Source: a virus. Taken from it: 64,000 nt of DNA. The translations under genes and the position numbers were made by a program. Under the pieces are notes generated by a model. It searched no databases. It was not told the DNA's origin and saw nothing but the letters and a program-made list of their open reading frames with translations. Of the stretch, positions 1,260-1,890 are shown in pieces; the first letter of the stretch is position 1, and the number at the start of each line of letters is the position of its first letter. The stretch is from the IMG/VR virus record IMGVR_UViG_3300044641_002513, positions 24,897 to 88,896 of that record; one strand, given 5' to 3'.

Positions 1260-1460
1260 TTATTCTGGATTCATAAACACTTCATAAGTAGTTTCTGATA
1301 ATCTATCTACTCTATATGGTTTTTTACCATTAAGAATATTATCAGCCCACCACTTATTTTGTTCTCTTATTGACTGTCTTAGTCCAGATTCTCTAAATGA
1401 ATCCATTGATACTTTTAATAAAGCATCTTGTTGTTCTTGAGTTATTGTTATTACTTGCAT
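1260..1460 (-). CDS. small hypothetical early protein (start revised from 1547 to 1460)
   Basis: MQVITIT... start has an AT-rich leader; the longer 1547 start would overlap the ribozyme. Confidence 0.6.
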   Translation of the reverse strand: MQVITITQEQQDALLKVSMDSFRESGLRQSIREQNKWWADNILNGKKPYRVDRLSETTYEVFMNPE

Positions 1461-1502
1461 AATAAATATATTTTTAAGTGAATAAATAAAGTTTCTATAA
1501 GT

Positions 1503-1666
1503 TAATAATCCCTCTGCACTCAACTTGTAGTCAGTAGCTTTTGACATTCAGGATTTTAAATCCATCAGTACTACCTTTGCTGTTTTAAACCAAAGAATAA
1601 AACCATCCTGGCCAGATATACTACAAGTTGTCTACCCTTGGGAAGTGAGAATGGTGCATTACAAAA
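1503..1666 (-). ncRNA. twister-type self-cleaving ribozyme with a large P5 insertion
   Basis: Minus strand UAA-UGCA-CC-AU-UCUCAC-U-UCCC-AA-GG-GUAGA-[CAACUUGUAG...CUACAAGUUG]-AG-UGCA-GA-GGGA. This matches the twister core: UAA cleavage site, P2 UGCA/UGCA, T1 UCCC/GGGA, T2 CC/GG, P4 and P5. P1 is not evident. Confidence 0.75.
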
Positions 1667-1795
1667 GACTAAAAGTTGTAGAGAGAATGCATCAATATCT
1701 CTACCTTTCCAAATTTTTAAATGCATTTCTTCTAACAACCTCACATGTATCCCTACATGTTACAAAGAAAGCTTTTAGTCTTGGTGGATGGTTTT
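1665..1795 (-). ncRNA. multi-stem RNA domain directly upstream of the ribozyme
   Basis: Stems 1665-1675/1772-1782, 1678-1684/1698-1704 and 1743-1749/1754-1760; possible pseudoknot 1686-1692/1721-1727. Confidence 0.5.
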
Positions 1796-1799
1796 TTGT

Positions 1800-1890
1800 A
1801 CTCTCACAAGGTTGCAATCCTTGAAGTATGTGACACATTTGGAATGTACCTAATCGAAAAGGTATTCACATTACCTGCTTGGATGAGAGT
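1800..1890 (-). ncRNA. three-way-junction RNA candidate
   Basis: ACUCUCA/UGAGAGU closing stem, AUGUGA/UCACAU arm, and CAAGG-AUUGCAA-CCUUG hairpin. Confidence 0.55.

Follow-up and report, generated by a model that had tools for sequence, protein, structure and literature searches.

The window analyzed here, a stretch of 64,000 nucleotides from an 88.9-kb IMG/VR virus record (GC content about 32%), contains on its minus strand a 152-nt element (1661-1510) that resembles a twister ribozyme. A preliminary description of the window had read this element as an active twister variant with an altered T2 pseudoknot, no P1, and a large, possibly regulated insertion in P5. The locus raises the question of whether the element belongs to a family of self-cleaving RNAs and, if so, whether this particular copy is likely to function. 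The reading that we favor, with a probability of about 0.7, is that the window holds a mosaic, likely weakened copy of an uncatalogued phage variant of the type-P1 twister, the consensus members of which cleave themselves. The virus has a crAss-type terminase and portal in the window. Among cultured phages, the one closest to it is Cellulophaga phage phi14:2 (Crassvirales), with a terminase identity of 33%, and lake-water metagenomes were the source of the matching DNA.

The twister class is built from P1, P2, and P4, with optional P3 and P5, and from the pseudoknots T1 and T2; about ten bases in L1 and L4 are more than 97% conserved (PMC5408937). Twister cleavage occurs at a U-A site in the junction before P2, in which the U is less conserved and the A is highly conserved (PMC5408937). 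The preliminary description had placed all of the core elements in order on the minus strand with a cleavage site between U1661 and A1660, and the sequence confirmed every coordinate. The element opens with UAA (1661-1659), a motif found in 101 of the 103 distinct rows of the family alignment described below, with the predicted cut falling after the U and with A1659 expected to stack between T1 and P2. P2 consists of four pairs between UGCA (1658-1655) and UGCA (1518-1515), flanked by A1659 and G1514; twister P2 likewise has four Watson-Crick pairs plus an A-G pair beside T1 (PMC5408937). The dinucleotide CC (1654-1653), the proposed 5' half of T2, follows P2 and is separated by AUU from the 5' strand of P4, CUCAC (1649-1645 in the covariance model alignment), which is the commonest type in the family. 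Loop L4, UUCCCAAGG (1644-1636), is nearly invariant across the family and supplies both CCC (1642-1640), the 5' half of T1, and GG (1637-1636), the 3' half of T2. The 3' strand of P4, GUAGA (1635-1631), is the second commonest family type and does not match CUCAC, a mismatch absent from the preliminary description.

The 3' half of the element is equally recognizable. As had been proposed, P5 forms 11 perfect pairs (1630-1620 with 1531-1521) and encloses a large insert, which comprises 88 nt (1619-1532). A two-base junction, A1520-G1519, leads from P5 to P2; it was AG in 86 of the 103 rows and AA in 6. The element ends with GAGGG (1514-1510), in which G1514 occupies the position of the catalytic guanine of twister (PMC5408937) and GGG (1512-1510) pairs with the CCC of L4 to form T1, with A1639 and A1513 adjacent. 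The T1 of twister has three C-G pairs and an A-A pair (PMC5408937). The pattern of the 5' half alone is expected by chance 0.05 times per window. When the whole element was folded, its minimum free energy was no better than that of shuffled sequences (z = -0.76), and in that fold the U-rich upstream flank was paired with GAGGGAUU in a competing helix.

Relatives of the element were sought in a starting set of 49 fetched loci encoding related terminases. Comparison of these loci with blastn revealed that intergenic conservation was confined to short islands, two of which correspond to the element's own 5' and 3' halves. A strict descriptor (UAA-N4-N2, then CCCAA-N2, then the complement of N4 followed by GAGGG) detected the element in 9 of the 49 loci and, after a pattern scan of IMG/VR, identified at least 119 distinct full copies in 170 fetched loci. 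A family covariance model built from 12 compact members, with T1 left out of the model, recovered 12 full-length copies from the window and the loci of terminase relatives taken together, and at least 110 matches in 98 further pattern loci. IMG/VR phage contigs thus contain over 100 copies of the element, which range in length from 54 to 263 nt. The whole record from which the window derives contains a single copy according to this model. The model had no match in Cellulophaga phage phi14:2; among GenBank phage records, blastn found no match to either the region or a consensus-like member, and no published description of the family was found in a literature search.

A scan of genome contigs returned 120 loci, 5 of which contained the full element; the others had matched the pattern of the 5' half by chance. 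Of the five elements, two were on contigs binned with metagenome-assembled genomes of the Chitinophagaceae, one assigned to Chitinophagaceae (L364) and one to Sediminibacterium (L367). Binning, the sole source of information on hosts, gives a weak hint that the hosts are Chitinophagaceae.

Some copies departed from the common pattern. Decayed copies were found beside intact ones, for example at L033:1041-1098 and L033:1319-1422 (minus), as were many 3'-truncated matches. The forms of decay included change of CCC to CUC, loss of GAGGG, deletion of L4 in one case, and absence of the 3' half. These decayed neighbors suggest turnover of the element by duplication and recombination. In the copies at L009:93-232 and L010:3772-3911 (minus), an extra UC between UAA and P2 moves the cleavage-site A off P2; these copies have a 5-bp P1, and the remainder is intact.

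The alignment of 110 matches supported a conserved structure. Standard pairs occupied 97.1% of the paired cells, versus 83.7% when partners were shuffled, and pairing fell to 31 to 37% when partners were slid by one column. Two-sided changes were observed in all five P4 pairs and all eight modeled P5 pairs, and the third P2 pair was C-G in 74 rows and U-A in 18. P4 alone had at least 20 different complementary strand combinations, and the G-U wobbles in P4 and P5 fit an RNA transcribed from the element's own strand. T1 showed compensatory changes, to CAC/GUG in three copies and to UCC/GGA in one; because T1 was outside the covariance model, the alignment was not biased toward this pairing. P1 in the twister register averaged 2.23 contiguous pairs, compared with 1.08 ± 0.10 for shuffled partners, and reached at least three pairs, with differing sequences, in 40 of 97 copies; in about 60% it was 2 bp or less or was absent. 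The first two bases of L4 were UU in 101 of 103 rows; across the family, the pair closing P4 was C-G, A-U, U-A, or G-C. P5, with a conserved CAG/CUG base and the AG junction, was found in every member, and P3 in none. By these comparisons the family is a genuine, covarying twister-like RNA that keeps UAA, GAGGG, the CCCA/AGGG of T1, a 4-bp P2, P4, and P5.

The evidence for T2 was less clear. In twister, a conserved GC directly after P2 pairs with two bases bulged from L4 (PMC5408937), and the preliminary description had regarded CC/GG in the window as a compensatory change from GC/GC. The CC/GG pairing is possible from the sequences, but T2 had no clean covariation. The pair between alignment positions 9 and 27 (C9-G27) never varied across the family rows. 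C8 was replaced by U in five rows, with G28 unchanged in all five, so that a wobble was still allowed, and in four of those five U8 rows the junction G before the 3' strand of P2 had become A (A211). In L183 and L193, U8 occurred with A at both positions (A28 and A211). The joint change of U8 and A211 indicates that the first C could belong to a fifth P2 pair, although T2 fits equally well. Thus, in the window C1654 may pair with G1519 and lengthen P2 to five pairs, which would depart from the four-pair P2 of twister, instead of taking part in T2. Two scans for variant 3' halves of T2 returned mostly chance matches, and the few informative variants fit either pairing.

Catalogued ribozyme models did not recognize the element. 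A search with twister models in local mode had been suggested as a check, and it had a negative outcome: RF03160, RF02684, and RF03154 gave no match to the window at the gathering threshold or at E values of 10 or less. The same three models found nothing in the whole record and no twister in the loci of eight relatives, and at E values of 10 or less they found none in search spaces of about 120 nt. They also missed a 107-nt copy with a perfect P4, a 54-nt minimal copy, and an 87-nt copy with a 5-bp P1. Scans at the gathering threshold of the window and 22 related loci, and scans at E values of 10 or less of four short regions, reported no ribozyme at the element, and no riboswitch or other Rfam family matched there in the window. 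The same Rfam search detected Hatchet ribozymes, tRNA, and tmRNA elsewhere in related loci. Because well-formed members were missed equally, the failure of the Rfam models reflects the distance of the family from those models rather than chance.

The order of elements and the position of the U-A site in the P1-P2 junction are those of the type-P1 twister (RF03160). As in twister, the family has a 4-bp P2 flanked by A and G, forms T1 from CCCA in L4 and AGGG after P2 with AA in L4, and has a two-base bulge on the 3' side of L4 that faces the two bases immediately following P2. Insertions are accommodated in P5, P1 is short or can be dispensed with, and there is no P3. P3 is also lacking in the rice (Oryza sativa) type-P1 twister Osa-1-4. 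There are four differences. The proposed T2 of the family is CC/GG, the first C of which may pair locally, whereas GC/GC is conserved in twister; the family L4 carries an extra U (UU-CCC-AA-GG), whereas twister has a single U before CCC; and P5, optional in twister, is obligatory in the family with its CAG/CUG base. The fourth difference is that the P4 closing pair varies in the family, in contrast to the nearly invariant closing G-C pair of twister P4 (PMC5408937). P4, one of the features by which membership was judged, is formed in the family and not in the window copy. By sequence and predicted structure, we consider that the family is an uncatalogued variant of the type-P1 twister.

Two other ribozyme classes deserve mention. 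Twister-sister (RF02681) is loosely alike in its scaffold and some loop bases, but its cleavage site is on the opposite strand and it lacks pseudoknots (PMC5408937), whereas the family has a covarying T1 and a twister cleavage-site context. No Rfam match to twister-sister was obtained in the window or in any family member scanned. Hatchet (RF02678) self-cleaves at its own 5' end and shares phage early regions with the family; its fold is unrelated, and none was found in the window. Hatchet ribozymes at L069:191-325 (+) and L061:6387-6553 (+), which scored 82 and 79 bits, were on the same strand as family copies and about 1 to 1.5 kb upstream of them. The presence of Hatchet near family copies fits the known clustering of self-cleaving ribozymes (PMC10085705). 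L069 additionally holds a tmRNA and tRNAs.

The window copy differs from well-formed members of the family in two of its helices. In the model alignment, CUCAC and GUAGA form only two Watson-Crick pairs and one wobble, with two C-A mismatches. The P4 hairpin with L4 held open has a predicted energy of 0 kcal/mol, the weakest among the 119 matches listed, for which the median was -3.9 kcal/mol. CUCAC/GUGAG, in at least 44 distinct copies, and UCUAC/GUAGA, in at least 15, are the two commonest P4 types. The combination CUCAC/GUAGA was found only in the window copy among the matches listed, and the reciprocal hybrid UCUAC/GUGAG was seen once, at L146:7822-7919 (minus), where P4 ties with that of the window as the weakest. 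These two were the only copies without a stable P4 among the 119 matches listed. Each hybrid can be explained by one crossover inside the invariant L4, whereas point mutation would take three changes. The window P4 is a hybrid of the two commonest types that probably arose by recombination in the invariant loop. P1 could not be drawn in the window, as the preliminary description had stated; there are zero pairs in the twister register.

The two flanks of the window copy are also shared with different relatives. L011 and L110 have the same upstream flank, whereas L025 and L033 have the same 3' flank and leader, which indicates that the copy is a fine-scale mosaic. L033, with the same 3' flank as the window, has a P1 of six pairs. 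The 5' strand of P1 has been replaced or lost in the window copy. Because 40 of 97 family copies have at least three P1 pairs, the absence of P1 is a defect of the window copy and not of the family. The unusual copy is not an assembly error, because it recurs in a second lake sample and in a separate 118-kb contig: window positions 1398-1827 were matched without a difference by a contig from the other lake sample, and positions 752-1824 were shared at 99.25% identity (1,073 bases) with the 118-kb contig, which is divergent on both sides. This contig is L364 (JBIPNK010000148.1; 117,852 nt).

These results bear differently on the family and on the window copy. Efficient self-cleavage by consensus members of the family is likely. 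The mismatched P4 and missing P1 make the activity of the window copy doubtful; we expect its cleavage to be weak or absent and consider the odds to lean slightly against its efficient self-cleavage. The identification of a twister variant in the preliminary description thus holds for the twister-like identity of the RNA, with its covarying family, and loses force where the copy was called active.

One explanation with an appreciable chance of being correct, although clearly short of even, is that the window copy is a dead relic. The family would be, or would have been, a ribozyme, and this copy would survive as a structured spacer or leader together with its neighboring module. Its P4 is the weakest listed, its P1 is absent, and its covariance model score (56.4 bits) is the lowest of the full-length matches; moreover, plainly decayed copies lie beside intact ones in relatives, such as the two in L033. 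However, the loop and catalytic positions of the window copy are all intact (UAA, CC, UUCCCAAGG, AG, and GAGGG), and P2 and the 11-bp P5 are perfect, features of a kind that decayed copies usually lose as well. P1 is dispensable for twister activity in vitro (PMC5408937). It is also possible that an alternative, bulged P4, in which UCU-C-AC pairs with GUAGA, could form in the window copy with the help of T1 and T2. Finally, the copy is almost unchanged in two different phage backgrounds.

A more general alternative, which we regard as improbable, is that the whole family is a noncatalytic RNA that shares the twister fold, such as a 5' structure that resists nucleases or a platform that binds proteins and displays the P5 insert. 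The failure of the Rfam models and the details of T2 and L4 that are off the twister consensus could be read in this way, and the exchangeable P5 inserts suggest a scaffold role. However, the best-kept bases are those required for twister chemistry rather than for folding, namely the A just 3' of the scissile bond and, in GAGGG, the G at the catalytic position, and the element is associated with Hatchet ribozymes.

The P5 insert had itself been viewed as an extra domain of a possibly regulated ribozyme. An allosteric ribozyme, in which the insert senses a ligand or partner and switches cleavage, would have the insert in a stem required to place P4 and L4 beside P2, and the insert of the window copy has its own predicted hairpins (summing to -15.2 kcal/mol). 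Yet the inserts differ in nearly every member and are mutually unrelated, ranging from about 4 nt to more than 200 nt, and minimal members with 4-nt loops exist, the smallest being 54 nt long (L074:2895-2948). A large P5 insert is thus a family-wide trait and not particular to the window copy. The window insert is unique to this copy and near-identical modules, with no relative among more than 300 fetched loci, and neither a riboswitch nor another Rfam family matches it. The variation of the inserts between members, down to a 4-nt loop, argues against a conserved regulatory domain, and allosteric control is very unlikely. A merely coincidental grouping of short motifs within AT-rich intergenic sequence, which the AU-rich element, the shortness of its motifs, and the nonsignificant fold z-score might have suggested, is refuted to the point of being negligible by more than 100 homologous copies with compensatory changes in four helices and one pseudoknot.

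The surroundings of the element suggest what cleavage by a twister variant might accomplish. Downstream, an AU-rich leader of 49 nt (1509-1461) with repeated AACUU motifs separates G1510 from the start codon at ATG 1460, close to the distance of about 45 nt first noted. The leader has two or three repeats of AACUU(A) and runs into the start codon with AAACUUAUG. Leaders of this type come directly after the ribozyme in several unrelated contexts in other phages, among them L025, L090, L136, and L148, and were also noted in L051 and L053; the leader is part of the match between window positions 1522-1462 and L025. ATG 1460 opens a small ORF of 66 amino acids (1460-1260, minus strand), the frame of which is open back to ATG 1547 in the P5 insert; the ORF has no relatives and no PHROG family. 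Across the family, 101 of 102 intact copies were outside ORFs of at least 100 amino acids on either strand, and about 30% of the 102 ended 28 to 54 nt before an ATG-initiated ORF.

Two further structured RNAs precede the element on the minus strand. The nearer is a multistem domain (1795-1662; fold of -31.8 kcal/mol) closed by AGACUAAAAG/CUUUUAGUCU; about 4 nt separate the end of this closing helix from the predicted cleavage site. The counterparts of this domain in L011 and L110 are 91 to 93% identical and likewise stand immediately ahead of a twister-type copy. The other, about 130 nt upstream, is a tRNA-like element (1892-1797) that has a 7- to 8-bp closing stem, UACUCUCA/UGAGAGUA, single-stranded UCCAAGCAGG, the hairpin CAAGG-AUUGCAA-CCUUG, and a variable insert. 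With the look of an acceptor stem and T-arm, it represents a second conserved RNA family, with the hairpin CAAGG-(A/G)UUGCAA-CCUUG and a minimal form of about 55 nt. Its halves are conserved with variable spacing in dozens of loci (e.g., L114:7575-7640, L041:3285-3410, and L109:5850-5975), and it lies no more than 450 nt upstream of 19 of the 102 intact copies. It had no Rfam match, and ARAGORN called no tRNA. In a metatranscriptome contig of a relative, the leader was joined directly to the tRNA-like element. Contigs of relatives from RNA libraries (assembled, with transcript ends not displayed) matched window positions 1473-1506, 1798-1824, and 1872-1893 and not the twister core. Farther upstream, a GC-rich hairpin (1985-1955, minus) overlaps the stop of an 88-amino-acid ORF (2235-1969) and is followed by a U-rich tail. 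This hairpin is terminator-like, so that the downstream RNA cassette might depend on read-through or on its own promoter.

The following sequence of events is proposed for well-formed members. The RNA would fold into P2, P4, and P5, after which L4 would dock on the 3' GAGGG via T1 and on CC via T2 or its remnant. The transcript would then cut itself between the U and A at the extreme 5' end of the element, thereby parting the upstream tRNA-like element and multistem domain from the downstream message. The upstream piece would be left with a 2',3'-cyclic phosphate end, and the downstream message would begin with a 5'-OH and carry the ribozyme with its P5 insert, the 49-nt AU-rich leader, and the start codon. 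Because twister cuts at its own 5' edge, the upstream RNA would be released while ribozyme, leader, and gene are kept together. Such a processing role matches proposals made for bacterial ribozymes (PMC6765202).

The mosaic structure of the window copy raises the speculative and rather unlikely possibility that lake crAss-like phages exchange modules at twister cores, which would act as portable joints. Recombination would rely on microhomology within the invariant 9-nt L4 and at the conserved base of P5, and it would swap RNA modules lying upstream, the cargo inserts of P5, and genes lying downstream. The reciprocal P4 hybrids in the window and L146 would then be crossover footprints.

What genome-encoded self-cleaving ribozymes do for bacteria and phages is still an open question (PMC6765202). 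The family described here offers hundreds of natural variants in one setting, the early-region intergenic spacers of lake crAss-like phages, where copies often precede a start codon by 30 to 50 nt and follow tRNA-like RNAs or have Hatchet ribozymes nearby. If the assignment based on comparative sequence evidence is correct, then the active-site architecture of twister would tolerate rewiring of the T2/P2 junction, variation in the pair that closes P4, and arbitrary inserts in P5, and catalogue-based annotation would be missing a large branch of a well-studied ribozyme class. The hybrid copy in the window would serve as a natural P4-disruption mutant. Should twister cores also act as joints for modular exchange, the family would combine RNA processing with a role as a hotspot of recombination, shaping the mosaicism of phage early regions.
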